From the NCBI GenBank assembly GCA_964454175.1, contig CAYVSA010000005.1, positions 2,201-53,953 on the forward strand: 51,753 nt of DNA, written 5' to 3'. Source of the DNA: an uncultured Pseudomonadota bacterium. GTDB lineage: Bacteria > BMS3Abin14. This document shows positions 3,868-41,051 of the stretch, one piece after another. Every line of letters starts with the position of its first letter. Within the stretch, counting starts at the first letter, position 1. The position numbers and the translations under genes were made by a program. The notes under the pieces are model-generated. The model was given only the letters and a program-made list of their open reading frames with translations, was not told where the DNA came from and made no database searches.

Positions 3868-3873
3868 CTTCGG

Positions 3874-4983: not shown

Positions 4984-5002
4984 TGTTCCGCCCTCCAGGA
5001 CT

Positions 5003-12226: not shown

Positions 12227-12244
12227 TGGTACCCACCTCCTTTA

Positions 12245-14458: not shown

Positions 14459-14467
14459 CTTGCTTCC

Positions 14468-20147: not shown

Positions 20148-22060
20148 TATTTATAGCTCCTTACTGCAGGTTCGATAACTTTGAATTCCAGCGGCTCCTT
20201 GTGAAGCACCGGCTCCTGGCCGACTCCGGTAAATTCCCATGCTGCCGAGTAGGTGAAGTTCTCATCATCACGCTGAGCTTCCCCTTCGGATGTCTGGTGC
20301 TCGACCCTGAAGTGTCCGCCGCAGGATTCTTTCCGGTGAAGTGCATCACGGCACAGGAGTTCTGCAAACTCCAGGAAATCTGCCGCCCTGCCGGCGTTTT
20401 CAAGCTGCTGGTTGATCTCACCACTTTCGCCTGGAACCTTGAGATCTTCCCAGAACTGGCCACGGATCTCGGGGATCTTTTCAATAGCCTCCGTGAGGCT
20501 CTCCTCGCTCCTGGCCATGCCGACTTTATTCCACATGAGTGACCCTAGCTCGTGCATGAAATCAGAGACCGTACGGCTTCCGCCGATGGAAAGCAATTTT
20601 TCGCGATCGTCCGCCACCTCTTTAATTGAGGCAAGGCACTCCGGGCTGTCGACCTGAAGTTTGCCGGGCGCGGTCTGGGTAAGATAGGTGGAGATCGTGT
20701 ACGGTATAATAAAATACCCGTCTGCAAGGCCCTGCATCAGGGCACTCGCCCCGAGTCTGTTGGCTCCGTGGACAGAGAAGTTGGCCTCCCCAAGGACGAA
20801 AAGCCCCGGGATGTTGCTCATCAGGTTGTAATCTACCCACAGACCGCCCATTACGTAGTGAGGTGCAGGGTAGATCCGCATCGGTACCTTGTACCCGTTC
20901 TCCGCTGTAATCTGTTCGTACATCTCAAAGAGGTTGCCGTATCGCTCCCGGATAAGATCCTCTCCAACCCGCATTATGGAATCTCGGAAATCAAGGTAAA
21001 CTCCCCTGCCTCCAGGCCCAACACCCCGCCCTTCGTCGCACTGCTCCTTTGCCGCCCTGGACGCTATGTCCCTGGGCGCAAGGTTGCCGAAGCTTGGATA
21101 TTTTCTTTCGAGATAGTAATCACGGTCCTCTTCCGGGATCTCGTTTGGCGGACGGTTGTCACCCGCTTTCCTGGGGACCCAGCACCGCCCGTCATTTCGC
21201 AGGGACTCGGACATGAGCGTCAGTTTAGACTGGTGACTTCCGGTTTGAGGTATACAGGTCGGATGGATCTGTGTGTAGCACGGGTTGGCGAAGTAAGCAC
21301 CCCTTTTGTGGGCCTTCCAGATAGCTGTAACGCTGCATCCCCTGGCATTGGTGGAAAGGTGATAAACGTTGATATATCCTCCTGTACACAGGAGAACTGC
21401 ATCACCGACATGACACCGGATCTCACCGGTAACAAGATCACGGATGGTTATGCCCTTTGCTTCTCCGTCAACCAGTATCAGATCCAGCACTTCTGTCCTC
21501 GGGTGAAGCTTGACTGTGTTCGCCTTTATCTGTCTTGACAGGGCGGAATAAGCTCCCAGGAGAAGCTGCTGCCCTGTCTGGCCCCTTGCGTAGAAGGTCC
21601 TTGAGACCTGGGCACCGCCAAAGGAACGGGTATCAAGGTATCCACCGTAATCCCTCGCAAAAGGGACTCCCTGGGCCGTACACTGGTCTATTATCTCATT
21701 GCTTACCTGGGCAAGCCGCCAGACGTCCGCCTCACGGGACCTGAAGTCGCCGCCCTTTATAGTGTCGTAGAAGAGGCGTTTAATGCTGTCACCGTCATTG
21801 TTGTAGTTCTTCGCCGCGTTGATACCACCCTGGGCAGCAATGGAGTGGGCTCGCCTGGAGGAGTCCTGGTAGCAGAAGGACTCGACATTGTAGCCAAGTT
21901 CACCCAGTGTGGCTGCAGCTGAAGCACCAGCAAGGCCAGTTCCCACGACCAGGATCTTGTATTTACGTTTATTTGAGGGATTTACCAGCTTCATATCGAA
22001 GCGATATTTATCCCAACTCTGTTCTATTGGTCCTGTTGGACTTTTTCCATCAAGTATCAC
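20147..22060 (-). CDS. sdhA: Succinate dehydrogenase/fumarate reductase flavoprotein subunit
   Basis: VVGTGLAG, covalent-FAD His [35 protein letters not shown]. Catalytic direction cannot be read from sequence. Confidence 0.95.
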
Positions 22061-22071
22061 TGTAATGCCCC

Positions 22072-22737
22072 CTATTTGGTAAGGATCCCGGCAATGATCA
22101 GGGCCGGGATCGCACCATAACCCAGCAGGAACAGGATCGAGAGGAGTTTACCGCCCATGCTGAACCTGGGCAGCGTCCGGTCGTTATTCCAGCCCAGAGA
22201 CTGGAAAGTACTCTGGATGCCGTGGTTGAGGTGGAGGAAGAGAACGATCATGGCGAAAATATAGAAGCCCGCGACCAGCGGTATCCGCAAACTGCTGATC
22301 ACCATGAGGAAGACATCGAAGCGATCCTTCCAATCAAAGGCCTGGACAACATCCGGCGTTGCCCTGAAGGTGAACTGGGCGAGGTGTACCAGGATGAAAG
22401 CCAGCAAAAGTGCTCCAGTCCAGATCATGGTCTTACTGGAAAAAGTCGCCCTGAGGTTCTTCTTGACAGCGTATTTTTCTGGATTAGCGCCCCAGTTCTC
22501 CAGCGTCAGGACAATTCCCAGGTAGACGTGAAGACAGAGCATCGAGATCATGAAAACCCTGAATGCCCATACCAGCGGGGCGAGTTCACGAAGATGTTCT
22601 GCGTATGCATTAAGCCAGTCGGAACCAATGAATATGGTGGAATTTCCCAGTAGGTGCATGACGACAAACAGGAGCATAAACAGACCGCTTACTGCCATAA
22701 GCATCTTTTTGCCTACGGAACTTGATAACAATGACAT
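22072..22737 (-). CDS. sdhC: Succinate dehydrogenase cytochrome b subunit (single anchor, five-TM type)
   Basis: KKMLMAVSG; four candidate heme His (MHLLGN, LHVY, VHLAQF, LHLNHG). Confidence 0.92.
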
Positions 22738-22927
22738 GGCACCTTTCCTTTAGTAGTGAGGTTTAAGTTCTGGATTAATTTACAACTCCCGCCCTGGTTG
22801 CATTTACAGGGCTGAAACATCAAACTTTACGTGGTACTTTGAACAACCACCTCCTTCTGGGTCCACAACGACGGGCATGACGGCGAAGCGCCATCTGCCA
22901 TCAGCAGTTGCGGACGGGACCGTCCGG

Positions 22928-23464
22928 TTACCCGATAAGATCGTAGCCCAGCTGCAGGGCTCTCTTGTTGAGGTCCTCGGTGCCTTTTGGCACCCTTGAC
23001 AGAACCGCCTTCAGCACAGCGTCAAAAGACACTTTCTCGATCAGGTGTGAAATGGCGCCCAGAGCGACGATGTTGGCCACGAAAGTCTTTCCGATCTTTT
23101 CCTTCGCGGTTTCGATTATGGGTAGACTGTGGACTGTGTAGCCGCCCTCCGGCAGGTCCTTGACCATCCTGGAATCCGCAATTATCACTCCGCTGTCTTT
23201 GAGGTCGTGGGTGTATTTGTTGCAGGCCTCCTGGGTCAGGCACAAGAGCAGGTCTATCTGTGTTGCCTTTGGATAATCAATGTCCCCGTCGGAAATAATA
23301 ACCTCGGACTTGCTTGCTCCGCCGCGCGCTTCCGGACCGTAGGACTGGGTCTGCACAGCGTTCATTCCATCGTACAGTGCGGCGGCCTCAGCCAGGATAA
23401 CACCTGCCAGCACCAGGCCCTGACCACCTGCACCACTCAACCTTACTTCATACCGGTCTGACAT
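22928..23464 (-). CDS. korC: 2-oxoacid (2-oxoglutarate):ferredoxin oxidoreductase gamma subunit
   Basis: LSGAGGQGLVLAG, QSYGPEARGGASKSEV. Confidence 0.92.
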   Translation of the reverse strand: MSDRYEVRLSGAGGQGLVLAGVILAEAAALYDGMNAVQTQSYGPEARGGASKSEVIISDGDIDYPKATQIDLLLCLTQEACNKYTHDLKDSGVIIADSRMVKDLPEGGYTVHSLPIIETAKEKIGKTFVANIVALGAISHLIEKVSFDAVLKAVLSRVPKGTEDLNKRALQLGYDLIG

Positions 23465-23479
23465 ATCAGCCTCCTGTGG

Positions 23480-24295
23480 TCAGGCTCCCTTGCCTACCCT
23501 CTCAACTATCTTGGCGTACTCGTCACAGTACTCAGGTTTTTCCTCCTGCTTGTAGACGCCAGTTATTATCTTGCCCTCAGCTTTCTCAGGGTTTTTGTCC
23601 GCTATCTTTTTGCCGATGGTATTGCCCTTGAACCAGAGGAACATATCTGTAGCGGAACCAAGCTTGTTCCTCCTGCCGTAAGTGGTCGGACAGGTACACA
23701 GCGCATCGATCACGGAGAACCCTTTGTGAGCTATTCCATCCGCGATGAGCCTTGTCAGGGGTACAGAGTGGTAGGCAGTCCCCCTCGCCACGTAGGAAGC
23801 ACCAGCCCCCATAGCGAGCTGAACCACATCAAATGCATAATCAGGGTTGCCGTAAGGGGTCGTGCTTGCAAGCATGCCGTGAGGAGTCGTAGGAGAAAAC
23901 TGGCCTCCGGTCATACCGTAAATATTATTGTTGAACACAATGAGGGTAATATTTATATTTCTTCTGCAAGCATGAATGAAGTGGTTCCCGCCAATGGCCA
24001 GGGAGTCGCCATCCCCCGCGACAACTATAACGTTCATAGCTGGTTTTGCCATCTTGACACCAGTGGCGAAGGCCAGCGCACGACCGTGGGTAGTGTGCAG
24101 GGTGTTGAAATCCATGTAGCCGGGCATTCGTGACGCACAGCCTATGCCCGACACTATCGCCGTCTGATCCTTGTCCAGTCCCTCCCTGTCAATAGCCCTT
24201 ATGATGGATTTCATCACAATCCCGTGGGCGCACCCGGGACACCAGATATGAGGCAGTTTGCCGGGTCTGATGTACTGATCATAATCGAAAGCCAT
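23480..24295 (-). CDS. korB: 2-oxoglutarate:ferredoxin oxidoreductase beta subunit
   Basis: WCPGCAHG, SGIGC, TPP motif GDGD...NN, YGMTGGQ. Confidence 0.93.
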   Translation of the reverse strand: MAFDYDQYIRPGKLPHIWCPGCAHGIVMKSIIRAIDREGLDKDQTAIVSGIGCASRMPGYMDFNTLHTTHGRALAFATGVKMAKPAMNVIVVAGDGDSLAIGGNHFIHACRRNINITLIVFNNNIYGMTGGQFSPTTPHGMLASTTPYGNPDYAFDVVQLAMGAGASYVARGTAYHSVPLTRLIADGIAHKGFSVIDALCTCPTTYGRRNKLGSATDMFLWFKGNTIGKKIADKNPEKAEGKIITGVYKQEEKPEYCDEYAKIVERVGKGA

Positions 24296-25428
24296 TACGA
24301 CACCTCCCTTATTCTATCGAGGATCTGTTCAGGAGTGATGGGTTCGCCGTCGGCCCTGTTCAGCCCCACAACCTCCGCTTTGCCTTTGGAGGAACGCTCG
24401 ACTTCTTCGATCATCTGCCCAAGATTCAGTTCGGGGACAATTATTACATCGAGTTTTTCGGCCATTTCAAGGACAGCGGCAGAGGGGAAGGGCCACAGGG
24501 TAATTGGCCTGAAGAAATCGACTTTCAGACCCTTTCCCTTTGCAAGGCCCAGAGCCGACCGTGTCGATCTGGCACTTGAGCCAAAAGCCAGCACCCCAAC
24601 CTTCGCACCTTCGGTCTCAAGATATTCGTACTTCTCGATGAAATCGAGGTTTTCGCTCACCTTGGCCATCAAGCGCTCCTCTTCCGGTTCTACGAGTGCA
24701 GCAGAGCCAGTGGGGAAACCCGTCTCGTCGTGGTTGAGTCCAGTAACGTGCCACCTGTATCCTGAACCGAAATCGGCCATGGGCGGTACCAGCCCCCCTG
24801 TTGAATCATAGGGTTTATACTCTGATGGCGGTACTGTGGGTCTCGGCCGGTCCCAGATCTCCAACTCGCCCTCAGATGGGATCGTGAATTTCTCGCGCAT
24901 GTGCCCGATGATCTCATCAGCCAGCAAAATAACCGGCGTTCTTAACCTCTCCGCAAGGTTAAAGGCCCTGACCGTTTCCGTGAATATCTCCTCAACCGAG
25001 TTCGGCGCAAGGACGACCGCAGGATGATCCCCGTGAGTACCCCACCTGGCCTGCATGACATCCGACTGGCTGGGTGAGGTAGGAAGACCTGTGCTCGGTC
25101 CGCCTCTCATGACGTTAACGATCACACACGGGACCTCTGTTATGCATGCAAATCCCATGTTCTCCAGCTTCAAAGACATGCCCGGGCCGCTCGTTGCGGT
25201 GAGACTCTTGCGTCCGGTAAGAGATGCTCCGATCACAGCAGCCATGGCCCCGATCTCGTCTTCCATCTGAATAAAAGCGCCGCCCAGTGTTGGCAGCTTT
25301 CTTGCCATTATCTCGGCAACTTCTGTAGAGGGCGTTATCGGGTATCCGGCAAAGAACCTGCAGCCAGCGTAGAGCGCTCCTTCCGCACACGCCTCATTGC
25401 CCTGAAAAAATACCGCTCTTCCGCTCAT
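24295..25428 (-). CDS. korA: 2-oxoglutarate:ferredoxin oxidoreductase alpha subunit
   Basis: FFAGYPITPSTE, QMEDE, ATSGPG, MRGGPSTGLPT. Confidence 0.93.
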   Translation of the reverse strand: MSGRAVFFQGNEACAEGALYAGCRFFAGYPITPSTEVAEIMARKLPTLGGAFIQMEDEIGAMAAVIGASLTGRKSLTATSGPGMSLKLENMGFACITEVPCVIVNVMRGGPSTGLPTSPSQSDVMQARWGTHGDHPAVVLAPNSVEEIFTETVRAFNLAERLRTPVILLADEIIGHMREKFTIPSEGELEIWDRPRPTVPPSEYKPYDSTGGLVPPMADFGSGYRWHVTGLNHDETGFPTGSAALVEPEEERLMAKVSENLDFIEKYEYLETEGAKVGVLAFGSSARSTRSALGLAKGKGLKVDFFRPITLWPFPSAAVLEMAEKLDVIIVPELNLGQMIEEVERSSKGKAEVVGLNRADGEPITPEQILDRIREVS

Positions 25429-25685
25429 TATTTACTCCCCCTCTTCCCTGACGGGTGAACCTCTATGGCGAAATCAGGACAGCTCACCTCGCAGAGCAGA
25501 CACTCGGTACACGCTTCGAGATTTACCACGCAGGCCTTGAAATCCTTCATATCAAGAACGCCGGCCGGGCATACCTTTACGCATATATCACAGCCTTTGC
25601 AGTACCTGGGGATGATCGCTATCTTTCGCTCCCCGTACTCGGCAACGACTGCTTCCTCCTTCTTACGGGCTGTATCAGCCATCAC
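25428..25685 (-). CDS. korD: 2[4Fe-4S] ferredoxin (delta subunit)
   Basis: CKGCDICVKVCP and CTECLLCEVSCP. Confidence 0.9.
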   Translation of the reverse strand: MMADTARKKEEAVVAEYGERKIAIIPRYCKGCDICVKVCPAGVLDMKDFKACVVNLEACTECLLCEVSCPDFAIEVHPSGKRGSK

Positions 25686-25694
25686 AACCTCCTG

Positions 25695-26570
25695 TCAGCG
25701 GCCAAGGACTTCGGCAACTGCCGTGCCGATATCGGCGGGACTTGAACTCACAGTGACCCCGGCCTCTTTAAGGGCAGCTACCTTTTCAGCAGCAGTGCCC
25801 TTGCCGCCGGCAATGATAGCACCGGCATGGCCCATCCTTTTTCCCGGGGGTGCAGTCTGGCCGGCGATAAAGGACACCACCGGCTTTTTGAATGTTGCTT
25901 TTATATAGGCAGCGGCTTCTTCTTCTGCCGATCCGCCGATCTCTCCGATCATTACGACCGCCTCTGTGCCATCGTCATCGTTAAAAAGCTTCAAAAGATC
26001 GGTAAAGGTGCTGCCGATGACCGGGTCACCTCCAATACCTATGCAGGTACTCTGTCCGATCCCTATTTCAGTCAACTGACCAACGGCCTCATAAGTAAGG
26101 GTTCCACTCCTGGATATCACACCCACCGTTCCCTGTTTGTGGATGAAACCAGGCATGATCCCCATCTTGCACTCGCCTGGAGTAATGACTCCCGGGCAGT
26201 TTGGCCCGATCAGCCTGACCCCGCGGCCCGCTATGGCATCTTTTGCCTTCACCATATCCAGGGTGGGGATACCTTCAGTAATGCACACAACCACACCCAC
26301 TCCTGCATCCGCTGCCTCGATGATCGCATCACCTGCGAAAGCAGGCGGTACGAATATGAGGGCCGCATTTGCTCCCTCCTTCTCAACGGCCTGGGTGACG
26401 GTGTTAAATACCGGTATGCCGTCCACATCCTGGCCGCCTTTTCCGGGAGTTACACCCGCTACTACATTAGACCCATACGCTACACACTGCTGAGTGTGAA
26501 ATGTGCCCTCGCGGCCGGTGATCCCCTGCACTACAACTCTGGTGTCACTGTTGACCAGGATGCTCATCAT
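25695..26570 (-). CDS. sucD: Succinyl-CoA synthetase alpha subunit
   Basis: [20 protein letters not shown], phospho-His RMGHAGA. Confidence 0.97.
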
Positions 26571-27739
26571 TCACCTCCCGAACCTGTGGCCGCCGAAACG
26601 GCCTTCTCCGCAGCCTGTTTGAGACCTTTTGCTGTTACGAATCCCAGGCCTGATCCTTCTATGAGACGCAGTCCCTCGTCCGCATTTGTCCCCTCCAGCC
26701 TGACAATGACCGGAACCTTCACGTCCAGAGCCTTCGCCGCATTGACGACTCCCTGGGCAACAATGTCACACCTCACTATGCCGCCGAATATATTGACCAG
26801 AACCGCCTTTACGTTCTTGTCTGCAAGGATGATCCTGAAGGCATTAGTTACGGATTCTTCCTTGGCACCGCCACCCACATCCAGAAAATTGGCAGGCTCG
26901 CCGCCAGACAGTTTGATGATATCCATGGTAGCCATAGCCAATCCCGCACCATTCACCATGCAGCCGACGTTCCCATCCAGCTTGATATATGACAGACCGA
27001 ACTTGGAGGCTTCTATCTCCAGGGCCTCCTCCTCTCCAAGGTCTCTCAGTTCGGTAACAGCCTCCTGCCGGTAGAGGGCATTGTCGTCAAAATTCAGCTT
27101 GGCGTCCAGTGCAATTACAGCTCCGTCACCGGTTGTGATAAGGGGATTTATCTCTGCCAGAGAGCAGTCCTTTTCTACGAAAAGCCTGTAAAGCTTCAGG
27201 ATAAATGAAGCCGCAGCAGAGGCAGTTTTTCCCTTAAGGCCCAGGCCGAAAGCCAGGTTTCTGGCCTGGTAGGGCATAAGTCCCATGTTTGGATCAGCGA
27301 ACTCCTTGAGGATCTTCTCGGGAGTTTCTGCCGCAACCTTCTCTATCTCAACGCCGCCCTCGGTGCTCGCCATTACTGCAATACTCTCGGAGGCCCTGTC
27401 CACGACCATTCCGAGGTAAAACTCCGAGGCGATATCAACTGCACCCTCAACGAGTACCTGGTTAACGACACTTCCACCGGGTCCAGTCTGAAAGGTTACC
27501 AGCGGCTTTCCGAGCAGGCCTCCTGCAACTTCGGACGCCTCTGCGGGCGTTCCAACGACCTTCACACCGCCTGCTTTGCCCCTTCCTCCAGCGTGGATCT
27601 GCGCTTTGACCACAACCCTTGTCCCGAGTGATTCGGCTATTGTACCTGCCGCCTCAGGAGCTGTGGCAACTCCGCCGTCCGGTACGGACACACCGTACTG
27701 CTTTAGTATCTCTTTTGCCTGGTATTCGTGGACTTTCAT
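26567..27739 (-). CDS. sucC: Succinyl-CoA synthetase beta subunit
   Basis: [42 protein letters not shown]. Confidence 0.97.
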
Positions 27740-27760
27740 GTAATTACCTCCGAAAGTAAA

Positions 27761-28318
27761 CTATGCTATCCTGAATTCCTTAACACCGTTTTTGTAAAGA
27801 TCGTTCCCTTCGCAGTCGTTGACAACAATGGCCGGAAAATCCTTGACCTCCAGCCTCCTGATCGCTTCCGGACCAAGGTCTTCATATGCGATTATTTCAC
27901 AGGAATCGATCCTCCTGGAGATGAGTGCGGCCGCCCCGCCCACTGCCGCCATGTACACAGCCTTGTGTTTGACTATGGATTCTATGACCTCAGGTGATCT
28001 TGAGCCTTTTCCGATCATTCCCTTAAGTCCCTTTTCAATGAGGATTGGGGAATAGGCGTCCATCCTGTAGCTGGTAGTTGGACCGGCAGAACCGATAGGT
28101 TCTCCGGGGCGTGACGGTGTTGGACCGACAAAGTAGATTATCTGTCCCTCCAGGTCCATGGGGAGCTTTTTTCCTTCAGCAATAAGGTCGACCAACCTCT
28201 TGTGCGCCGCATCCCGCCCGGTGAATATGGTGCCTGTGATAAGAACCTGGTCCCCCGCTCGCAGTGCTTCAACATCTGTGTCTTTCAGCGGCGGTGTAAG
28301 CCTGATGGGTTCAGCCAA
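27761..28318 (-). CDS. Fe-S fumarate hydratase (class I) beta subunit
   Basis: GRDAAHKRL, GPTTSYRMD, GKG; TCA-operon context favours fumarase over tartrate dehydratase. Confidence 0.9.
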   Translation of the reverse strand: MAEPIRLTPPLKDTDVEALRAGDQVLITGTIFTGRDAAHKRLVDLIAEGKKLPMDLEGQIIYFVGPTPSRPGEPIGSAGPTTSYRMDAYSPILIEKGLKGMIGKGSRSPEVIESIVKHKAVYMAAVGGAAALISRRIDSCEIIAYEDLGPEAIRRLEVKDFPAIVVNDCEGNDLYKNGVKEFRIA

Positions 28319-28330
28319 TTTGGTCCTCCC

Positions 28331-29170
28331 CTAGATTACCGTTTCCTTGTGCCTGTGTGCGTGGCAGTTGATATTCACAGCAACGGGCAGGCTGGCAATG
28401 TGACAAGGGTGCATCTGAATATGGACTGCAAGGGAAGTTGTTCTGCCCCCAAGCCCACCCGGTCCAATACCAAGATCGTTGACCCTTTCAAGGATCTGAG
28501 CTTCCATATCAGCCAGTTCAGGATCTTCGCTTGGCTGCCCGAGAGGCCTTAGAAGCGCCTCTTTTGCCAGCATCGCAGCCTTCTCGAATGTGCCGCCAAT
28601 ACCCACCCCGATAACAGTCGGCGGGCAGGGATTTGGACCTGATTCAGCCACCCTGTTCACGACGTAATCCATGATCCCATCTTTGCCGTCGGATGGTTTC
28701 AGCATCATCACGCGGCTCATATTCTCGCTGCCGCCGCCCTTGCCAGCAAGGGTAATTTTTACTTTTTCACCCGGTACGACCTTAAGATGAATGATCGCCG
28801 GTGTATTGTCCCCTGTGTTTTTCCTGGTAAATGGATGACACACACTCTTTCGCAGGAATCCTTCAGCATACCCCTGCCGAACACCCTCGTGAACTGCCTC
28901 CGAGATGTCACCTCCCGTGATGTGGACTTCCTGTCCAAGCTCGACGAATATTACAGCAAATCCTGTGTCCTGGCACATGGGATAAACGCCTTCCATGGCA
29001 ATGCCAGCGTTCTCGATCAGCTGCCTGATGATCTCCCTGCCTGTTGGTGAGGTTTCCGCGGCAAGGTTATCTTTCAGGGCCTCTTTAACATCATCACCGA
29101 GCTTATAGGCCGCTTCAATGGACATCTCTCTAACGGCTTCGGTGATCCGGGAAGATTCAATTTCTCTCAT
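28331..29170 (-). CDS. Fe-S fumarate hydratase (class I) alpha subunit
   Basis: CQDTG, KGGGSEN, NPCPP, CHAHRH; start moved to ATG 29170 (GGAG RBS). Confidence 0.9.
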   Translation of the reverse strand: MREIESSRITEAVREMSIEAAYKLGDDVKEALKDNLAAETSPTGREIIRQLIENAGIAMEGVYPMCQDTGFAVIFVELGQEVHITGGDISEAVHEGVRQGYAEGFLRKSVCHPFTRKNTGDNTPAIIHLKVVPGEKVKITLAGKGGGSENMSRVMMLKPSDGKDGIMDYVVNRVAESGPNPCPPTVIGVGIGGTFEKAAMLAKEALLRPLGQPSEDPELADMEAQILERVNDLGIGPGGLGGRTTSLAVHIQMHPCHIASLPVAVNINCHAHRHKETVI

Positions 29171-29335
29171 CAGTTGTTCTCCGGTAGATCCAGTTTCACC
29201 ACTCAACTGCACGCTACCTGGTACAAGGACGCGGGAAGACGCATCTTGTACACGCGGCAGCGTGAAAAAAGGGAGGACCGCCAGAATTCAAGAGCCCCCC
29301 CTCATAAAATCAAAAACTGACGTCGATACTTCCCA

Positions 29336-30274
29336 TCAAAGAGGAAGTTTTTCAACGTTTGACTTGATATCGCTCACAGACTCCTGAAGGGCGGCCATCT
29401 CCTCATCAGACAGGTCGATCTCAATAACTTTCTCGACACCGTCACCACCGATGATTGCAGGGACACCCACGTAGAGCCCACCTTTAACGCCGTACTCGCC
29501 TTCCAGACAGGCAGCAACAGGCAGGATCCTTTTTTTATCCTTGAGGATAGCTTCTGCCATCTGAACCGCCGAAGCCGAAGGAGAATAGTACGCACTTCCT
29601 GTCTTGAGAAGACCGACTATCTCACCTCCCGCTTTCCTCGTTCTCTCAACGATGGCATCTATGCGGTCCGCCGGGATCAGCTTTTCAATGGGGATACCGC
29701 CTGCGTAAGAATACCTCACCAGGGGAACCATGCTGTCGCCGTGGCCTCCCAGGACAAAAGCACTGGTGTCTTCAACGGAGATACCCAACTCCATGGCTAT
29801 GAAAGCCCTGAAACGTGCGCTGTCCAGGACCCCGGCCATTCCCAGGACCCGGTTTTTGGGGAAACCCGTGACGGCCCTGGCAACATAGGTCATTACATCA
29901 AGCGGGTTGCTGACGACGATAATAAATGCATCTGGCGAGTGCTTTGCACACTGTTCCGCACAACTCTTGACGATCTCAAAATTCTTTATGAGAAGGTCGT
30001 CCCTGCTCATACCTGGCTTTCTGGCCAGACCTGCAGTTATGATAACAACATCAGAACCGGCAGATTCCTCATAGCTGTTAGTGCCGATAATGCTGCAGTC
30101 AAAGCCTTCAACCGGCGCGGTCTCGACCATGTCAAGGGCCTTACCCTGGGGCATTCCCTCGACAATGTCTACAAGTACAATGTCGCCCAGTTCTTTAGAC
30201 GCAGCCCAATGGACGGCTGTAGCACCGACGTTGCCTGCACCGACTACTGTTATCTTGTTTCTCTTCATGGCCAT
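29336..30274 (-). CDS. mdh: Malate dehydrogenase (LDH-like)
   Basis: [22 protein letters not shown] (Arg specificity loop), VVSNPLD, LGGHGD. Confidence 0.96.
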
Positions 30275-32749: not shown

Positions 32750-34417
32750 TCAACCGTGCCCTCTCAGTTTATTCAATACTGCCATTTGCTGCTGTATCTC
32801 CAGGGACATGGAGGCCAGATTGAGTAATATTTCGAGAGAATCGAGGTCGCGGATCGGTGTCCCTCCCGGAACTACATCACCATACATTATAGCCACCACA
32901 AGACTCTGTACAGTGATAGGCATTATCACGGCGTATTTCGGTGCAGGATCCCCTATTGCCCCGAGGAGGTCAAGACCAAGCGTATCTCCAGGTTCCTCTT
33001 CATGAATAACCTTTCCGGTGGACACTGCCTGGCTCAGAAGGTGTGATTGAGAAAGTTCGAAACTAAGGCCTTTGATCCTGCCGTTGAACTCATCGTCTTC
33101 CTTCCTCCGGTCATTACCGAAGAACCCTGACACCAAATTCTTTCGAACCAGGAATATTGCGCTTCGATCCATTTCGTTAGAGGCAAACTCAACGATGGTC
33201 TGCGCCATTTTGCCAAGGCTCTTTTCCCTGACCATCTTGTCGCTGGTCTGCCTCAGAAAACGGATGTCACCTGAATCCCGTTTCACGAGCTCCCCAACCT
33301 CCTGAAGCTCCTCCTGGGCCTGGACCAGCTGCGAGAGAAGCTCCTCGCGCAAAATGTTCTGCTGTTCCCTCTCGAAATAAACCTCGTGCCGCTGGATCAC
33401 ATTCTGTATGCACAGTGCAACCTCCTCAATGAAGAGATTGAGTTGATTTTCCAGTTCCTCCGGGGATATGTCCTTGCGCTCCGGCTTGTGGATATAGTAG
33501 GTTGCGCCCAGAAACAGGGCCCGCCTCCTTATGGTCGCATCCGGGTAGGCGGTGTTCACGATGACGGGTATGTGGCTGCTTGTTTTCTGGATCTCTTCGA
33601 GCAGCTCCAGGCCTCCGAATAGACCTTTTCCGCTAATAGTAGGCATTATAAGGTCTGACAGCACAATAGGAAGCTTTCCCTGTACATCGTACTCTGAGAG
33701 CTTGTTAAGGGCCTCATGCGGCGACTCCACCGCGTCCACCTCGAATCCGAAACTTTCCAGCTTGTCCTTGAACATCTCGCGCATGAGCGCCTCATCCTCA
33801 ACCATGAGAATGATCTCTTTCGGCTTCAATTCCCTCAGCTTGGCGCTCACCCGTTTAAGCACAGCGTTCACATTGCCGACGATGGAGCTTTCGATCTCAT
33901 CACTTCCTGGTATGAGCTCACCGAGCATCCAGTCCTCTTCCACCGCAGCGGCCAGCTGTCTGGCCTTCTCGGCCAATTCCTCTATGGGAGCAACGCCAAC
34001 GGATTCCCCCTCCGCGTCATCAGACTCCTCAACCCTGAAGAGGCCCTCGTCCCAGCTCAAAAGGTGAATCAGGGAATCTTCTACCACCGCCCGCATTGAG
34101 CTGCCAAGCGTAGCCTTGTCGATTATCCCCTGTTCAATAAGTATCTCACCAAGGTATGCCCTTTCACCCTTCTCCTTCTGTATTGTCAGGGCGTTCTGAA
34201 GCTCTTTTTCAGTAATTATATTGTTCCTCACAAGGTATCGACCGAGCCGGCTCCTGACCCGCGGTTCCCTTACATCGAGAACAACTCCACCCTTGAGCCT
34301 GACAGTGGCCAGACCAGTCTTGCCCTTGAGCGTAATAACCCCCGTAAATCCCTTGGCCTCGGCATTTTTCAGGATATCCACTACAGATTTGCTCTTAAGG
34401 CTTCCGGATGTAACCAT
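32750..34417 (-). CDS. DUF4388-type N-domain with MshEN-like motifs + receiver + GAF-like C-domain
   Basis: RLGRYLVRNNIITEKELQNALTIQ and YLGEILIEQGII; LLSWDEGLFRV; REC (VEDE, LSDLIMP, NTAY, HKP); C-terminal VIMPITVQSLVVAIMYGD. TGATG overlap with the hisS stop fixes the start at 34417. Confidence 0.8.
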   Translation of the reverse strand: MVTSGSLKSKSVVDILKNAEAKGFTGVITLKGKTGLATVRLKGGVVLDVREPRVRSRLGRYLVRNNIITEKELQNALTIQKEKGERAYLGEILIEQGIIDKATLGSSMRAVVEDSLIHLLSWDEGLFRVEESDDAEGESVGVAPIEELAEKARQLAAAVEEDWMLGELIPGSDEIESSIVGNVNAVLKRVSAKLRELKPKEIILMVEDEALMREMFKDKLESFGFEVDAVESPHEALNKLSEYDVQGKLPIVLSDLIMPTISGKGLFGGLELLEEIQKTSSHIPVIVNTAYPDATIRRRALFLGATYYIHKPERKDISPEELENQLNLFIEEVALCIQNVIQRHEVYFEREQQNILREELLSQLVQAQEELQEVGELVKRDSGDIRFLRQTSDKMVREKSLGKMAQTIVEFASNEMDRSAIFLVRKNLVSGFFGNDRRKEDDEFNGRIKGLSFELSQSHLLSQAVSTGKVIHEEEPGDTLGLDLLGAIGDPAPKYAVIMPITVQSLVVAIMYGDVVPGGTPIRDLDSLEILLNLASMSLEIQQQMAVLNKLRGHG

Positions 34418-35691
34418 CACTCTTCTCCTTTCGAGTACCCACAACCGCACCCCGTACCTTTAAGAAGTTCATCCACCGGGACCTCCTCCTGTGTTTTGTT
34501 CCTGAAGTCCTTTATCTTCACAACGCCCCTTGACATCTCATCATCCCCCAGGATGATGACACGTTCTACTCCCAGTTTGTTGGCGCTTCTCAACTGCGCT
34601 TTCAGGCTCCTGTCCTCAAGGTCCGATCGCACTCTGTAGCCGCAGCCGCGGAGTCTGTCGGCAATGCTCATGGCGGCGACCCTGGCCCCGCTTGTTGCCG
34701 AAGCCACAAAGTAATCCAACTCCGGCAGTCCATTGTCAGGCCGATCCACAATATGGCCCAACCTCTCTAAGCCTATCGCAAACCCTATCCCGGGGACATC
34801 GCCCCCGATCTCCCTGGCCAGGCCATCGTACCTGCCGCCGGCAGCAACTGCATTCTGTGATCCGAGCCGTTCACAGACTGCTTCAAAAGCCGTCCGGTTG
34901 TAGTAGTCAAGTCCCCTGACTATCTTCGGATCAACCTCGTACGGCACCTCCAGGCCGTCCAGACCATCTGTCACCCTCTGGAAGTGAACCAGACAATCAG
35001 GGCACAGATAGTCCAACATTACCGGTGCCTTTTCAAGGGCCTCTCTGCACCCTGGGACCTTGCAGTCCAGGACTCTCAGGGGGTTTGTCTGCATCCTTCT
35101 TTTACAGTCGCCGCACAACAGATCAACCTGTTTATCCAGATAAACGACCAGGGCCTTCCTGAAGGGCGGTCTGCACGACTCGCACCCCAGAGAGTTGACC
35201 AGCATTTTCGTATCCGCAACGCCGAGCAGGACGAATAGCCTGTGAAGCAGATCGATCACCTCCGCATCAACAAGGGGGGCCTCACTGCCGAGGGCCTCCA
35301 ACCCCATCTGATAGAATTGGCGGTACCTGCCCTTCTGCGGTTTTTCATATCGGAACATGGGACCGGAATAGTACAGTTTGGAAAGCCCACCTCTGGATTT
35401 CCAGCCACCTTCAAGATAGGCTCTCACGGCAGAAGCCGTTCCTTCCGGACGCAAGGTGATGCTCTTTCCCTTCCGGTCGGAAAAAGTGTACATCTCCTTT
35501 TCCACGATGTCGGTAGACTCCCCAATGGACCTGGCAAACAGCTCTGTTGCTTCCACAAGGGGAAGCCGGATCTCATGGTAGCCGTAGCTCTGGAAATGAT
35601 CCCCTGCCAAGCGTTCGATCTCGCTGAGCTTGTGAGCTTCCTGCTGATCAATATCGCGGAATCCACGAATCGCCTTGATCCTGTTCGCCAT
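34417..35691 (-). CDS. hisS: Histidine-tRNA ligase
   Basis: EKEMYTF, LRPEGTA, FRYEKPQKGRYRQF, RGLDYY, GGRYDGL. Confidence 0.97.
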   Translation of the reverse strand: MANRIKAIRGFRDIDQQEAHKLSEIERLAGDHFQSYGYHEIRLPLVEATELFARSIGESTDIVEKEMYTFSDRKGKSITLRPEGTASAVRAYLEGGWKSRGGLSKLYYSGPMFRYEKPQKGRYRQFYQMGLEALGSEAPLVDAEVIDLLHRLFVLLGVADTKMLVNSLGCESCRPPFRKALVVYLDKQVDLLCGDCKRRMQTNPLRVLDCKVPGCREALEKAPVMLDYLCPDCLVHFQRVTDGLDGLEVPYEVDPKIVRGLDYYNRTAFEAVCERLGSQNAVAAGGRYDGLAREIGGDVPGIGFAIGLERLGHIVDRPDNGLPELDYFVASATSGARVAAMSIADRLRGCGYRVRSDLEDRSLKAQLRSANKLGVERVIILGDDEMSRGVVKIKDFRNKTQEEVPVDELLKGTGCGCGYSKGEE

Positions 35692-35700
35692 CCCGGATGC

Positions 35701-37149
35701 CTACCCCTGATCCTTGACCGGCGGATTTTCAGGCTCGATTTCGCTCCGGCTTGCCGTTCTTTCGGGGGCGGCTATGTAAACAACGTTCTTCCTCCCGAAT
35801 TTACCCCTGTACATTGCCTCGTCCGCAAGGTGAAGGAGCTCGATCTTTCCGGTTGCATGCTCAGGATAGGAAGCGACGCCGATGGAGATGGTAAGCCTTA
35901 TATTGTAGCCTTCCTCTCTCATGAAAACATAGCTTTCAACTGTCTCCCGGATCCTTTCAGCAACGATCCTGGCTCCTCCGGAAGTAGTGTCAGTCAGGAC
36001 AACAATGTACTCATCCCCGCCGTAACGGGCTACGGCATCTACTTTCCTGACGGCCTGCTTGAGAATTCCCGCCATTTCGATCAGGATCTTGCTACCCACA
36101 AGGTGGCCGTGTTTGTCATTTACCTGCTTGAATGAATCCAGGTCAAGGAAGAGTATCGACATATGGGTGTTCAGGCGCTGAGCCCTCAGTAACTCCCTGT
36201 CCAGGATGTTGTTGAGATAGCGGTAATTGAAAACGTTCGTCAGGTCATCGGTGATCGTCAGTATCTTTGCCTGGGAGTAGAGGAGCGCATTTTCGATGGC
36301 CGCACCGGCGTGTTCGGACAAAAAGGCTGCCACGTGTGTATCTCTTTCCGTAAATGCTCCTTCTCTTTCTGTATCGAAAAATACGACCATCCCGACCAGA
36401 TCCTTCTTGTTCCTGAGAGGAATAAATATGATCGACCGGATATGGTCAACGCTCGTTCGGAATTTAACCTGCAAAGAAGCGATCTTCTCGGGGATGACCG
36501 GGCCCACGGCCGAAGACATGACGTCCGTGTAGGCGGTGAAGACGTCGCTGTCGATGCTGTCGTTTAATTCAACGTCGAATCCCTCCGAGGCGATCACATT
36601 TGATTCGCCCTGCTCCTGGTCAAGAAGATATAAAAACCCCCGGGTCGCTCCGGTTTCCTGCATGAGCAGATCAAAAATGAGCTCGTAAAGCTCTTCGATC
36701 TCTATGGTTCTCGTGATCCTGCTTCCAATGTTGTGGAGCTTCAAACTGCTTTTCAGCTCCCTGTTTTCCTGGGCCAGCCTTATCTTGTCTATGGCACGGT
36801 GCACAACTATCTTGAACTCGGGCGGATTAAGTGGTTTTCTGATGTAGTCAAGGGCCCCCAGCTTCATGGCCTTCACAGCGCTTTCCACAGTGCCATGACC
36901 TGTAATGACGATGATCTCGAGGCCTGGCATTTCTTTCCGCGCCCAGTCAATAAGATCCAGACCAGACTTTTCGGGCATGACCATGTCAGTAACAACCAGG
37001 TCAATACCGCCCTGGTTAATCAAGTCGATAGCCTCGTCTACGCCCGGCGCTTCGCTGACTTCGAAAACTTCTTCTTCTTCCAGAATTTCGCGACAGAAAA
37101 CTCTGGCAAATTTGTCATCATCCACGACGAGAATTCGGGATTTGTTCAA
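35701..37149 (-). CDS. gacA: REC-GAF-GGDEF dinucleotide cyclase, Hypr type (probable 3',3'-cGAMP synthase)
   Basis: DLDSFKQVNDKHGHLVGS has Ser (codon 36093-36091) where c-di-GMP-specific enzymes have Asp; RKVD I-site; GGDEY; intact REC; comEC-gene-hisS order. Start moved to TTG 37149 (GGGAG RBS). Confidence 0.82.
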   Translation of the reverse strand: MNKSRILVVDDDKFARVFCREILEEEEVFEVSEAPGVDEAIDLINQGGIDLVVTDMVMPEKSGLDLIDWARKEMPGLEIIVITGHGTVESAVKAMKLGALDYIRKPLNPPEFKIVVHRAIDKIRLAQENRELKSSLKLHNIGSRITRTIEIEELYELIFDLLMQETGATRGFLYLLDQEQGESNVIASEGFDVELNDSIDSDVFTAYTDVMSSAVGPVIPEKIASLQVKFRTSVDHIRSIIFIPLRNKKDLVGMVVFFDTEREGAFTERDTHVAAFLSEHAGAAIENALLYSQAKILTITDDLTNVFNYRYLNNILDRELLRAQRLNTHMSILFLDLDSFKQVNDKHGHLVGSKILIEMAGILKQAVRKVDAVARYGGDEYIVVLTDTTSGGARIVAERIRETVESYVFMREEGYNIRLTISIGVASYPEHATGKIELLHLADEAMYRGKFGRKNVVYIAAPERTASRSEIEPENPPVKDQG

Positions 37150-37197
37150 ATTTGATCTCCCGTAAAATTCATCTAACAATTTAGAAAATAACACTTT

Positions 37198-37226: not shown

Positions 37227-37288
37227 TAACCACCATCATAACTCACCGGAATGCAGGGTAAAAAACCATACCAGCCCTACCTGGTGCT

Positions 37289-39613
37289 TCACCAGAACCC
37301 CGGAAGGCCGCTCTTATTTGTGGAGGAAAAAATGCTGATCCCGTCTCCGATCCCGGTGGTCCTGAATGGTATGCCCCGCCTCTCGAACCACTTTACCACT
37401 GTCATGGAGGGAAGCGATGAGGTGCCCGGTTTTCTGGCAGTGCACACTGCAAGTGAAAGAGCCGGCATTTTCCTGGAAAACCCTTCCCCTGAAAATCTTC
37501 CAAATCCGTTTGCACTTCCGTGATGCGGTACCTTGAGAACATCCAGACTACCAAACTCTTCCCACTCCGAGATCACCTTTTCCCATGGAGAGTCCCCTGT
37601 GAACAGAACATGAAAATGTCTCCAGCTCATCCCGGTAGACAGTGAAGTCCTGTTAAGGTCGTTCCTGTCTGCAATAAGTCCTTCTCCAGGCCAGAATATC
37701 CTGAACTTTATTTCTCCTTCCACGATCCTGTCACCCCTTTTTACGAAAGACACCCTGGTACCGGATGAACACCACTTCAGGACATTTTGCCAGAGGCCCA
37801 GACCTCCTCTGGTTTGAGGCAGTACAAGACGCCTTACAGGATAGTTTCTCAGAAGAAAGACAGCTCCGCCCATGTGATCTGGATGATTATGGGTCAGGAA
37901 TAGCACGTCTATCTTATTTATGCCCCGACGTTCAAGGTAGCGCGCGATCACCGGCGTTCCGGTGCCGGGATCTGGGCGGCCCGTATCGACAAGGACCGTT
38001 TTGCCCCCGGTCTGGATAATAGCTGCATCCGACTGTCCGATCCCCGGAAAAGTCACCAGAATTCCGTGTCGCAGCCTGCTTCGCTCAATTTCATTTCCTG
38101 CTGCCCCAAGTATCACCGGGATGAGTACGAGTACTGCACAGCGCCTGAGGGAACCCTTCCATCTGAGCCACAGGAATACTGAAACCACTGCACCTGAAGA
38201 AGCTAACACGGATCCGGAAGGGTTCAAAGGAAGCCAGACCCACGGCATTACCGCTGCCTTTTCTATAAATATCAGCACAGGTGTTGCGATAATTTTCCAG
38301 ACGGTGAATATCCATCCACTGATCGCAGGTGAGACAACTGCGAAAAAATCGCCCACCACTGCAAGGGGGATGAGAACAAAAGCAAAGGGCACGATGGTGA
38401 TCGTGTTGATAACAGGGCCAAGAACCGGGATCCCCCTGAAGATCACCGTTATGAGCGGGAGTGTTCCGAGAAATGCACCCATGGACACCCTCAGGGAGCC
38501 GAAAATGAAACTGTCGCCCTTTCTTACCGACGAGGCAATTCCCAGGCACGCAGCGACAGAAAGGCATAGTGACAGATCTGGCTGCGGTCTTCCTGACAAC
38601 GAAGAGATGACCACAAAAGCCACAGCGATGTTGTTGGTAAGGGATGTCTCTCTGCCAATGACAGGGGCCACCAGAAAGATCACAGCGAAAAACGCGGCCC
38701 TGCTCGAAGAAGTACTGATACCGGTCACTGCAAGGTAGAAGACTACCAGCAGACCTCCACACCATGCAGAAGTGAGGTAGAAGAGAACCCCCTGCTGACC
38801 GGCAGGAAGGCCAGCACCTAGAAGCCGCAACAGGATCATGCCTGCCAGCAGGGCAGAAGCGACATGGACACCAGATATGGCAAGGAGATGATATGTGCCG
38901 GTGTGTCTCAGCGCAAAAGACAATTTTCCCGATGTACGCCCTCTTATACCCGCTGCGATGGCAGAGAGCACAGCAGCGGCATCTGCGGGTCCTGTTTCCG
39001 CCAGCATGATAATCCTGCTGCGTACTTTCCCCAGAGCGCCCGAAACCACGGGTCTTGTTATCAGGAACAATTCCCCATTTTTCAGGTTACTTCGGTAAAA
39101 AGGAGCACCTTTCCCCCCGGTTTTTACCAGAGAAGCCCTGAAACGAATTCGGTCTCCAGGCAACAGATCTTCATGGGCAGTTTTCAGGAAAACTGTAAAG
39201 TTGGTTTTCTGCCTGATCTTTCCCGCAGTGGATCCCACATGAACCAGCAGTTCCAGTTTTCCATCAGTTCCGTTTCCTGTTGACAGCACTGTTCCTTCCA
39301 GTGTCTCCGACCGGAGCCTGTCCGGCATGGAACTCTTTTTCACAGCGTGTTTTATCGCGGTGAGCACACCTCCGGCAAAGCCGGTCGCCGCTACAGAAAG
39401 CGTTGATGGCCTTAAAAACGTTCCAGCAAAGATCGCTGCAGACTGGAAGAGCACTCTTTCGGCCGAAACCGGGAACTGTCCCGCTGCGAACAGGCCAGGC
39501 AGAAAGCCGCAGGCCAGTACTGCTGCCTGGAATCGAAAAGCCAGGGAATGCGCTGCAACCAGTTTTAAGCATCCCTGCCTGTTTTCCTCCCCCTGGGGCT
39601 TTTTCACAAACAT
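37289..39613 (-). CDS. comEC: ComEC/Rec2 DNA-uptake channel with metallo-beta-lactamase domain
   Basis: HLLAISGVHV, SSSRAA, multiple TMs, GQSDA, THNHPDHMGG, FTGD, KVPHHGS; start uncertain. Confidence 0.88.
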   Translation of the reverse strand: MFVKKPQGEENRQGCLKLVAAHSLAFRFQAAVLACGFLPGLFAAGQFPVSAERVLFQSAAIFAGTFLRPSTLSVAATGFAGGVLTAIKHAVKKSSMPDRLRSETLEGTVLSTGNGTDGKLELLVHVGSTAGKIRQKTNFTVFLKTAHEDLLPGDRIRFRASLVKTGGKGAPFYRSNLKNGELFLITRPVVSGALGKVRSRIIMLAETGPADAAAVLSAIAAGIRGRTSGKLSFALRHTGTYHLLAISGVHVASALLAGMILLRLLGAGLPAGQQGVLFYLTSAWCGGLLVVFYLAVTGISTSSSRAAFFAVIFLVAPVIGRETSLTNNIAVAFVVISSLSGRPQPDLSLCLSVAACLGIASSVRKGDSFIFGSLRVSMGAFLGTLPLITVIFRGIPVLGPVINTITIVPFAFVLIPLAVVGDFFAVVSPAISGWIFTVWKIIATPVLIFIEKAAVMPWVWLPLNPSGSVLASSGAVVSVFLWLRWKGSLRRCAVLVLIPVILGAAGNEIERSRLRHGILVTFPGIGQSDAAIIQTGGKTVLVDTGRPDPGTGTPVIARYLERRGINKIDVLFLTHNHPDHMGGAVFLLRNYPVRRLVLPQTRGGLGLWQNVLKWCSSGTRVSFVKRGDRIVEGEIKFRIFWPGEGLIADRNDLNRTSLSTGMSWRHFHVLFTGDSPWEKVISEWEEFGSLDVLKVPHHGSANGFGRFSGEGFSRKMPALSLAVCTARKPGTSSLPSMTVVKWFERRGIPFRTTGIGDGISIFSSTNKSGLPGFW

Positions 39614-39791: not shown

Positions 39792-41051
39792 TTACCTGCC
39801 CTTTCTAAAAAGGCCGAGCAGTCCCTTCCTCCCCTTTTTCCCGGCAGGTCCGGAGCCTTTTTCTTCTTCCTGACTCGAGTCCTCTATGTCCAGCTCGTGA
39901 AAAGTCGGATCGTACCGTGGGGCAGGTGCCGTAACTGGCTCGGAAAGTTCTTCGACAGGTATTTCCCCGGAAACAGGAGCCGTTGGGACATCCAGTGATG
40001 ATTCATTCTCACCCGGGCGATCCTGTACGGGCTGTACAGGCTCCTCAGCCTTTGTCTGGATCGGTTTAACGTACAGTTCAATCTTTCGCCCGTCTTCTGC
40101 GTCTTCTCCGTACCGGGTACTTTTCAGGACCCGGGCAACCAGAGCCAGTTTCAGGTGCAGTTTACCGCCCTCCGGCAGAGGCACATCGAGGTCCAGTATC
40201 GCGCCGTCGGCAGACGAGCCTCCAGCAGACTCGGGTTTTCCTGCCGCCTCCTGTGCCTGGTTATGATCGGCTTCTTCTTCTATCTGCTCATCTTCAGCCA
40301 TTTCGGGCAGCACCATTACAGGTTGGACGCGGGACGCAGTATTGGAATGAGGGTCAACTGGCGACTCCCCGACGGGGGTCGATGCACGGGCAGGTTCGGG
40401 GGGCGCGGCATTATGCATCGCTTCGCCACCGGTTTCAGCAGTCTGACTGTCCTGGCCGTTTTGCGGCAGATCGTCTCTGGCCTCCCGGACTACCAGCTTC
40501 ACTACTTCCCTTAGCGTCTCCAGGACACCGGTACCTTCAGTAGCCACCGCTTCTGTCATCGGCATCCCGTACCTGTTGAGGAGATGCTTTATGGTGCTAA
40601 TAGGCATCAGATTTTCGAGATCGCGCTTGTTGCACTGGATAAGGTGAGGAAGGCTTTTCAGTTCCTTGCCATGTGACTGAAGGTTCTTTTCCAGGTTGAG
40701 AATGCTCTCGATGTTTGCATCCTTCATGGTCATCTGCGAATCGGCTACGAATACGATACCATCAACTCCCTTGAGCACCAGCTTGCGCGTAGCGTTGTAG
40801 TGAACCTGGCCGGGCACTGTATAAAGATGCATGCGTATCTTGTAACCGCCCATCTCACCAAGGTCCACCGGCAGAAAATCGAAAAACAGGGTTCTGTCCG
40901 TCTGTGTCGCAAGAGAAACCAGCTTCCCCTTGAATTTCGATTTTATCTGTTCGTGTATGTACTGGATGTTAGTCGTTTTACCGGAAAGACCGGGACCGTA
41001 GTATACAACCTTGAAATTGACCTCTTTTTTATGAAAATCAATGACCGGCAT
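39792..41051 (-). CDS. MglA-family small GTPase with ~230 aa C-terminal extension
   Basis: KVVYYGPGLSGKTTN, DRTLFFDF, YTVPGQ, NKRD; acidic Pro-rich extension. Confidence 0.9.
   Translation of the reverse strand: MPVIDFHKKEVNFKVVYYGPGLSGKTTNIQYIHEQIKSKFKGKLVSLATQTDRTLFFDFLPVDLGEMGGYKIRMHLYTVPGQVHYNATRKLVLKGVDGIVFVADSQMTMKDANIESILNLEKNLQSHGKELKSLPHLIQCNKRDLENLMPISTIKHLLNRYGMPMTEAVATEGTGVLETLREVVKLVVREARDDLPQNGQDSQTAETGGEAMHNAAPPEPARASTPVGESPVDPHSNTASRVQPVMVLPEMAEDEQIEEEADHNQAQEAAGKPESAGGSSADGAILDLDVPLPEGGKLHLKLALVARVLKSTRYGEDAEDGRKIELYVKPIQTKAEEPVQPVQDRPGENESSLDVPTAPVSGEIPVEELSEPVTAPAPRYDPTFHELDIEDSSQEEEKGSGPAGKKGRKGLLGLFRKGR

Follow-up and report, generated by a model that had tools for sequence, protein, structure and literature searches.

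The stretch of DNA analysed here (the window; 51.7 kb of contig CAYVSA010000005.1, from an uncultured bacterium) encodes on its reverse strand, at 35701..37149 (-), a 482-residue REC-GAF-GGDEF protein that is read from a TTG start to a TAG stop codon, as indicated by the list of open reading frames (ORFs), the sequence itself and Pfam. We refer to it as the gacA-like gene after GacA of Geobacter, a dimeric "hybrid promiscuous" (Hypr) GGDEF cyclase that converts ATP and GTP into 3',3'-cyclic AMP-GMP (cGAMP), with cyclic di-GMP (c-di-GMP) as a side product (PMC6456294), and the evidence presented here points to a Hypr enzyme, rather than an ordinary diguanylate cyclase, as its product. The reading frame is intact across the entire interval, both in the ORF list and upon checking the sequence. 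The mechanically called ORF is longer (497 residues, from a GTG at 37194), but we prefer the TTG at 37149, which an earlier reading made from the letters alone (the sequence-only reading) had also chosen, because it lies 7 nt downstream of a GGGAG (37157..37161 (-)) that resembles a Shine-Dalgarno element by consensus only, because a database copy of the protein (P0001) has 482 residues, and because in the multiple alignment the homologues all start at an equivalent M-x-x-x-R/K-I-L-V-V-D-D-D.

Three Pfam domains account for most of the protein: a REC domain (residues 6-113, 36811..37134 (-); PF00072, E 4.9e-26), a GAF domain (residues 150-286, 36292..36702 (-); GAF_2 at E 1.8e-11, also GAF_3 and GAF) and a GGDEF catalytic domain (residues 299-454, 35788..36255 (-); PF00990, E 2.2e-40, spanning profile positions 2-159 of 161). 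AlphaFold models of the whole protein, with a predicted local distance difference test score (pLDDT) of 84.9, and of the GAF segment, with a pLDDT of 83.6 (predicted template modelling score 0.79), arrange them in the order REC, long helix (109-147), GAF sandwich and second long helix (268-298) leading into GGDEF. Within REC, the phospho-acceptor Asp55 (GAC, 36987-36985 (-)), assigned from the sequence and the homologue alignment, is invariant together with Thr83 and Lys105, and the acidic pair Asp11/Asp12 is nearly so. The GGDEF domain holds, from N- to C-terminus, Tyr309 (36223..36225 (-)), which lies in an FNYRYL identical to that of GacA and corresponds in the HMMER alignment to the cross-dimer Tyr304 of GacA, PleD carrying Arg at this place; Asn344 (36118..36120 (-)), an invariant column equivalent to GacA Asn339 and PleD Asn335, which contact the sugar face of the base; Ser353 (AGC, 36093-36091 (-)), which ends the segment NDKHGHLVGS; an RKVD I-site (Arg368-Asp371, 36048-36037 (-), AGG AAA GTA GAT), which aligns to the REVD (Arg393) of GacA and precedes the active site by five residues, as in PleD and GacA; and the active-site GGDEY (Gly377-Tyr381, 36021-36007 (-), GGC GGG GAT GAG TAC). 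The sequence-only reading had already named the serine, the GGDEY, an RxxD I-site and a phosphorylatable REC; all four are in place, and its positions for the serine and the GGDEY are exact on the reverse strand.

The residue that bears most directly on product specificity is Ser353. A phmmer search over all PDB sequences returned as top match 6D9M, a T4-lysozyme fusion of the Hypr GGDEF domain of Geobacter metallireducens GacA (E 9e-53), whereas the canonical cyclases DgcR and PleD followed at ~2-4e-33 (PleD at 3e-33), and the GGDEF domains of the window protein and 6D9M are identical at 90/163 positions (55%). The HGHLVGS stretch is the same in GacA, and in the HMMER alignment Ser353, the equivalent of GacA Ser348, falls on the second Asp of the PleD GHDIGD, nine residues past the conserved Asn. 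The serine thus lands on PleD Asp344 and not elsewhere, which is the position that the sequence-only reading had supposed for it. Since the conversion of AGC to GAC or GAT needs two base changes, a single sequencing error does not explain the serine. The replacement of the guanine-selecting Asp of canonical cyclases by Ser goes along with a score of 187.5 bits against the PleD equivalog (NCBIfam NF007135), below its cut-off of 474.

To place this residue in a wider context, we compared the best 120 database relatives of the protein, 118 of which cover the selectivity column. Ser or Thr occupies that column in 116/118 of these close homologues, GGDE[F/Y] is present in all, the RxxD is kept by all full-length ones, and the cross-dimer Tyr is found in most of the clade, as in GacA. 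As background we used 83 GGDEF domains among the matches listed, taken from unselected genome loci that had been fetched with generic GGDEF patterns, and found Asp in 76 of them, Asn in three and Ser in four; the four Ser-bearing domains are exactly the four best matches to the gacA-like protein, the other 79 having Asp or Asn. Two GacA-type homologues, one of them P0085 (L085 5001..6401), carry a Gly at the selectivity position (GHTAGG) along with a Pro at the cross-dimer position, a variant that is absent from discussion in the Hypr literature examined.

The published determinants of Hypr activity extend beyond this single column. Ser or Thr at GacA position 348 defines the Hypr rule, to which the "Goldilocks" model adds that the Ser requires GGDE[F/Y], with its shorter Asp, the combination of Ser with GGEEF being inactive; residue 304 tunes the product, with Tyr, Ser, Ala or Gln giving mainly cGAMP and Arg giving more c-di-GMP; and Asn339 and a c-di-GMP-binding RxxD I-site are also among the Hypr features (PMC6456294). 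The window protein has all of them, namely Ser353, GGDEY, Tyr309 (neither Asp nor Arg), Asn344 and RKVD. The weight of the serine is illustrated by the reverse substitutions in known enzymes, as GacA Ser348Asp is a c-di-GMP-only enzyme (PMC6456294) and the S214D mutation in Bd0367 of Bdellovibrio abolishes cGAMP in vivo (PMC9140294).

The relationship to GacA extends along the protein and into the gene order. Full-length BLASTP against the GacA homologue of Geomonas ferrireducens (Geobacteraceae) gave one segment covering residues 4-460 at 40% identity (E 2e-112), which at the level of sequence supports the gacA-like gene as orthologous to Geobacter GacA or as a close member of its family. Immediately upstream lies a comEC-like gene (37289..39613 (-); Pfam Competence and metallo-beta-lactamase), and downstream lies hisS (34417..35691 (-), assigned by Pfam), the start of which is 9 nt past the gacA-like stop codon as read from the junction sequence. 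The order comEC-gacA-hisS is shared by the window, the Geomonas ferrireducens locus (L081) and two loci from metagenome-assembled genomes (MAGs; L082 and L084), all three of which have hisS in the same downstream position, and comEC is also found upstream in a further locus, L085. The two MAG relatives L084 and L082 (90% and 68% identity, respectively) also share the next gene downstream, which encodes a PATAN-REC protein (see below), and aspS. In Geobacter sulfurreducens GSU1658 is gacA (PMC6456294) and GSU1659 is hisS (PMC2923632), so that the order comEC, gacA, hisS, which the sequence-only reading had given for that genome, agrees in its essentials with these assignments and with the Geomonas locus.

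Both hisS and the PATAN-REC gene seem to be co-transcribed with the gacA-like gene. Right after the comEC stop codon, and ahead of the gacA-like gene, lies a hairpin followed by a T-run (37285..37270 (-)), and between this hairpin and the gacA-like gene there is a weak sigma-70-like site (37262..37235 (-)); both are consensus matches only, and the counts of hairpins and promoter sites in the promoter/terminator scan were not clearly above the shuffled expectation. ORFs antisense to this region, for example one of 297 residues at 35242..36135 (+), overlap well-supported genes and were judged spurious.

The literature presents GacA as a Rec-GGDEF protein whose GGDEF domain begins at residue 294, which leaves ~170 residues undescribed. 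Pfam detects no GAF in the Geobacteraceae GacA homologues, even at E up to 1, while intermediate deltaproteobacterial homologues give weak GAF matches (P0072 matches GAF_2 at E 5e-4 over the whole profile). The middle region is collinear throughout the multiple alignment of homologues, and a hidden Markov model trained on this region alone, taken from 27 "GAF-cryptic" homologues of the Geobacter type (13-27% identity to the GAF core of the window protein), retrieved that core at E 1e-20 (60 bits). The PDB name of Gmet_1914 moreover already reads "GAF domain-containing". On these alignments the GacA family is REC-GAF-GGDEF throughout, with the GAF well preserved in the window clade and diverged in the Geobacter-type copy. 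The sequence-only reading was therefore right about the presence of an intervening GAF, but this domain is no departure from GacA, as it is GacA's own middle region. A 366-residue GacB-like protein of Corallococcus, drawn from the same loci as the background GGDEF domains, is 34% identical to the gacA-like protein over residues 107-471, that is over GAF and GGDEF, which suggests that the ancestral Hypr module was GAF-GGDEF and that GacA-type proteins gained a receiver; the receiver-gain step is our own inference.

What the GAF domain senses, if anything, is a separate matter. Foldseek with the isolated domain gave as best match the GAF of Lcd1, a Leptospira cyclase, with cAMP bound, followed by those of PDE5A and PDE2A and also by 6OAP. 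We rejected an assignment of the ligand by fold, as the margin over bilin, haem and orphan GAFs is trivial (E 2e-7 versus 1e-6, at identities of 10-19%), and a cyclic-nucleotide ligand is only a lead, consistent with the activation of GacB of Myxococcus by cAMP (10.1101/600031). The domain could instead be a ligand-free structural or dimerisation module in a helical spine, with control exerted through REC and the I-site only, and we give this somewhat less than an even chance. The divergence of the Geobacter-type middle region beyond Pfam detection suggests a relaxed pocket, an NKFDE-type motif for binding of cyclic nucleotide monophosphates is not evident by eye in the GAF sequence, and Foldseek did not separate GAFs that bind such nucleotides from others, all of which would fit an empty domain. 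Against it stand the strong conservation of the GAF within the window clade (Pfam finds it in P0001-P0060), the fact that in GacB, a related GAF-GGDEF Hypr enzyme to which the 34% identity of the Corallococcus protein over GAF and GGDEF connects the window protein, cAMP acts through the GAF (10.1101/600031), and the origin of the top Foldseek match, the GAF of a diguanylate cyclase with cAMP bound.

If it works as GacA, GacB and Bd0367 do, a dimer of the gacA-like protein would bind one purine nucleoside triphosphate in each GGDEF half-site, Glu380 of one monomer would deprotonate the substrate 3'-OH in its partner, and c-di-GMP made by other cyclases would bind the I-site and turn the enzyme off. 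Regulation may run along the helical spine of REC, helix, GAF, helix and GGDEF, as in REC-GAF dual-sensor proteins, with phosphorylation of Asp55, and possibly a GAF ligand, setting the geometry of the dimer. In Geobacter GacA the I-site dominates regulation (PMC6456294), and since the phospho-acceptor mutant D52A is still active there, c-di-GMP cross-inhibition is the control that analogy supports best.

Taken together, the sequence hallmarks, the closest structure and the homologue survey argue, in keeping with the sequence-only reading, that the gacA-like protein is a Hypr GGDEF enzyme of the GacA family, a cGAMP-capable cyclase mislabelled as diguanylate cyclase, to which we assign a probability of roughly 0.8. 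The mislabelling had been anticipated as well, as the labels that homologues carry in their sources are "diguanylate cyclase" and "cell cycle response regulator". Several points weigh against this reading. Hypr enzymes are promiscuous in vitro and their product in vivo depends on ATP:GTP ratios and cooperativity (PMC6456294), and a selectivity Ser alone is insufficient, as an Asp-to-Ser mutant of GSU3350 remained a diguanylate cyclase (PMC6456294). The activity of the Geobacter D52A mutant makes the role of REC uncertain, and not every family member lies in the order comEC-gacA-hisS: in the deltaproteobacterial MAG locus L085 the GacA-type gene has comEC only, with a gene for an FHA-sigma54 activator downstream, and in L086 and L087 it has neither neighbour. 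Finally, the 51.7-kb window yielded neither a GEMM-I riboswitch nor any other credible Rfam family, whether searched with the gathering threshold or permissively (E up to 5), and Pfam detected no HD-GYP phosphodiesterase within it, so that a downstream cGAMP pathway is not demonstrated.

Some of these points speak at the same time for an enzyme that in practice is an ordinary diguanylate cyclase, making mainly c-di-GMP in its own cell, with a Ser that only loosens specificity. The GSU3350 mutant fits this, as does the lack of a cGAMP-specific effector in the Rfam searches of the window. Hypr enzymes also make c-di-GMP, and the natural Ser-bearing Cabther_A1065 and Ddes_1475 make more of it (PMC6456294), while a REC-PilZ protein and a protein with an MshEN-like motif, both classical types of c-di-GMP receptor, are encoded nearby. 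The natural enzymes that lean towards c-di-GMP carry the cross-dimer Arg, however, whereas the gacA-like protein and most of its clade have Tyr, like GacA; the near-absolute retention of Ser/Thr with GGDE[F/Y] argues for selection on an altered specificity; and GacA and Bd0367 are cGAMP-specific in vivo (PMC6456294, PMC9140294). On balance we consider a predominantly c-di-GMP-making enzyme unlikely. A degenerate GGDEF domain serving as a receptor for cyclic dinucleotides or as a scaffold, and not as an enzyme, is hardly credible: many REC-GGDEF proteins are receptors and the I-site retained here could bind c-di-GMP, but no catalytic residue is lost (GGDEY, Asn344, Glu380 as general base and Asp379 as metal ligand are all present) and the domain shares 55% identity with an active, crystallised enzyme.

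Comparison with known systems places the probable Hypr enzyme of the window closest to GacA (GSU1658; Gmet_1914, PDB 5VS9/6D9M), which it resembles in overall length, in the order REC, middle region and GGDEF, and in having equivalents of Ser348, Tyr304, Asn339, RxxD and GGDE[F/Y]. It differs in that its middle domain is a clear GAF, as opposed to the Pfam-undetected one of the Geobacteraceae homologues, in its host from an uncultured lineage and in the lack of a GEMM-Ib riboswitch in the window. GacB (MXAN_2643) of Myxococcus xanthus has a GAF-GGDEF core homologous to that of the window protein, including the Ser, the GGDEF motif and the RxxD, and the Corallococcus protein matches the described GacB in architecture and in these three features. 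Unlike the window protein, GacB is without a REC, and its Corallococcus homologue has Ala, not Tyr, at the cross-dimer position; activation by cAMP has been shown for GacB only, the I-site of which is inhibited by c-di-GMP (10.1101/600031). Bd0367 of Bdellovibrio bacteriovorus is likewise a response-regulator-type Hypr GGDEF protein with the selectivity Ser and an I-site, is the only source of cGAMP in vivo and controls gliding motility (PMC9140294). The structures 6ZXB, 6ZXC and 6ZXM, considered as possible entries for Bd0367, were rejected as such because their Foldseek titles name DgcR, a canonical cyclase with Asp. Bd0367 is shorter than the window protein, its REC being joined directly to GGDEF with no GAF-length middle domain.

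More distant relatives resemble parts of the protein. PleD and WspR share the GGDEF fold, the I-site and control by REC, and PleD provides the top whole-chain Foldseek matches, but Asp344 is replaced by Ser and the cross-dimer Arg by Tyr in the window protein, and PleD has GGEEF. A dual-sensor histidine kinase (6OAP/6OAQ/6OB8) has the same succession of REC, helix, GAF and helix, matches residues 19-309 in sequence (E 1e-16) and, in the case of 6OAP and 6OAQ, resembles the REC-GAF half by fold too (Foldseek), offering a model for two inputs into one helical spine; it differs by its histidine kinase output and bilin-binding GAF and has no catalytic similarity.

Judged by its sequence, the enzyme is of a kind already known, GacA-type Hypr, newly seen in an uncultured lineage and with a clear GAF. 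Hypr GGDEF proteins are rare and routinely annotated as diguanylate cyclases, and a Hypr enzyme filed in this way would leave models of c-di-GMP signalling in an uncultured lineage off by one second messenger. With its ~60 database clusters (58-100% identity), the clade widens the GacA family beyond the cultured Geobacter, Myxococcus and Bdellovibrio, and recognising the middle region as a GAF provides a concrete handle on what activates GacA, since D52A is still active in Geobacter.

Two positions downstream of the gacA-like gene lies the PATAN(DUF4388)-REC gene (32750..34417 (-), 555 residues; Pfam DUF4388 and REC), the start ATG of which overlaps the hisS stop codon (TGATG), so that the two are translationally coupled. 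Residues 57-104 of its product (34106..34249 (-)) hold an MshEN-like motif pair, RLGRYLVRNNIITEKELQNALTIQ and YLGEILIEQGIIDKATLGSSM separated by KEKGERA, and score 47 bits against NCBIfam NF053729 ("cyclic di-GMP-binding domain, MshE-related"; cut-off 38), while residues 50-108 match PilB ATPases of the PDB at their N-terminus. MshEN consists of two tandem 24-residue motifs, RLGxx[LVI][LVI]xxG[LVI][LVI]xxxxLxxxLxxQ, with a 5-residue spacer (PMC5013675). Measured against this definition, motif 1, RLGRYLVRNNIITEKELQNALTIQ, is near-canonical with Gly10 to Asn as its only mismatch, whereas motif 2, YLGEILIEQGIIDKATLGSSM, is diverged, with Tyr for the initial Arg, Val for the final Gln and a spacer of seven residues instead of five. 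The MshEN-like motif is conserved in two PATAN-REC orthologues that occupy the same gene position in L082 and L084.

Directly upstream of comEC lies an mglA-like gene (39792..41051 (-)), the product of which matches Myxococcus xanthus MglA over residues 2-192 (E 1.3e-67) and continues into a C-terminal extension of ~225 residues that has a low-complexity appearance, with many acidic residues and prolines; in L084, the 90% relative, the mglA-like gene and comEC are arranged likewise. These neighbours invite the speculation that PATAN-REC is the missing protein effector coupling cGAMP to MglA-type control of polarity and surface motility and, separately, that the well-preserved GAF makes the cyclase a three-input enzyme (phosphorylation, GAF ligand and c-di-GMP at the I-site), a scheme that we regard as decidedly improbable as a whole. 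The pairing of a near-canonical, guanine-type motif 1 with a diverged motif 2 would match the asymmetry of a ligand such as cGAMP, and the control of Bdellovibrio gliding by Bd0367-derived cGAMP makes a link to motility a reasonable hypothesis. The affinity of VcMshEN for cGAMP is ~600-fold weaker than for c-di-GMP (PMC5013675), and the co-location of the PATAN-REC and mglA-like genes with the cyclase is lineage-specific and among housekeeping genes, so that it argues only weakly for a functional link. The PATAN protein with its MshEN-like motif, together with the mglA-like gene, offers a testable candidate for a protein effector of Hypr-made cGAMP. The REC-PilZ protein, encoded at 17692..18414 (+), ~17 kb from the cyclase, may be a c-di-GMP receptor; it has the RxxxR (RRRTHIR), and in its second PilZ motif, N-F-G-E-G-G, a Gly takes the place of the usual Ser.

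As to the host, the valyl-tRNA synthetase encoded in the window is 65-84% identical to its closest MAG proteins and ~59% to Deltaproteobacteria/Desulfobacterales MAG proteins, and the GacA-like clade shows the same pattern of relationship. These protein comparisons place the host in an uncultured lineage that has affinities to the Deltaproteobacteria. Elsewhere in the window, the genes at 10844..15058 (-) encode a self-contained two-component system, made up of an NtrY-like sensor kinase (HAMP-PAS-HisKA-HATPase) and an NtrX/NtrC-like sigma-54 activator, along with a DUF4390 protein; nothing ties this system to the orphan receiver of the cyclase. A compact block of tricarboxylic acid (TCA) or reverse-TCA cycle genes occupies 19374..30274 (-) and encodes succinate dehydrogenase/fumarate reductase (cytochrome b, flavoprotein and Fe-S subunits), malate dehydrogenase, a split class I fumarase, a three-subunit 2-oxoacid:ferredoxin oxidoreductase and the alpha and beta subunits of succinyl-CoA synthetase. 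An RND efflux operon (AcrB-like pump, HlyD-family adaptor and outer-membrane factor) with a TetR-family regulator lies at 736..6935 (-), and directly downstream of the REC-PilZ gene, convergent with it, a gene at 18437..19186 (-) encodes a 249-residue protein made nearly entirely of ankyrin repeats (Pfam Ank, E 2.7e-48).

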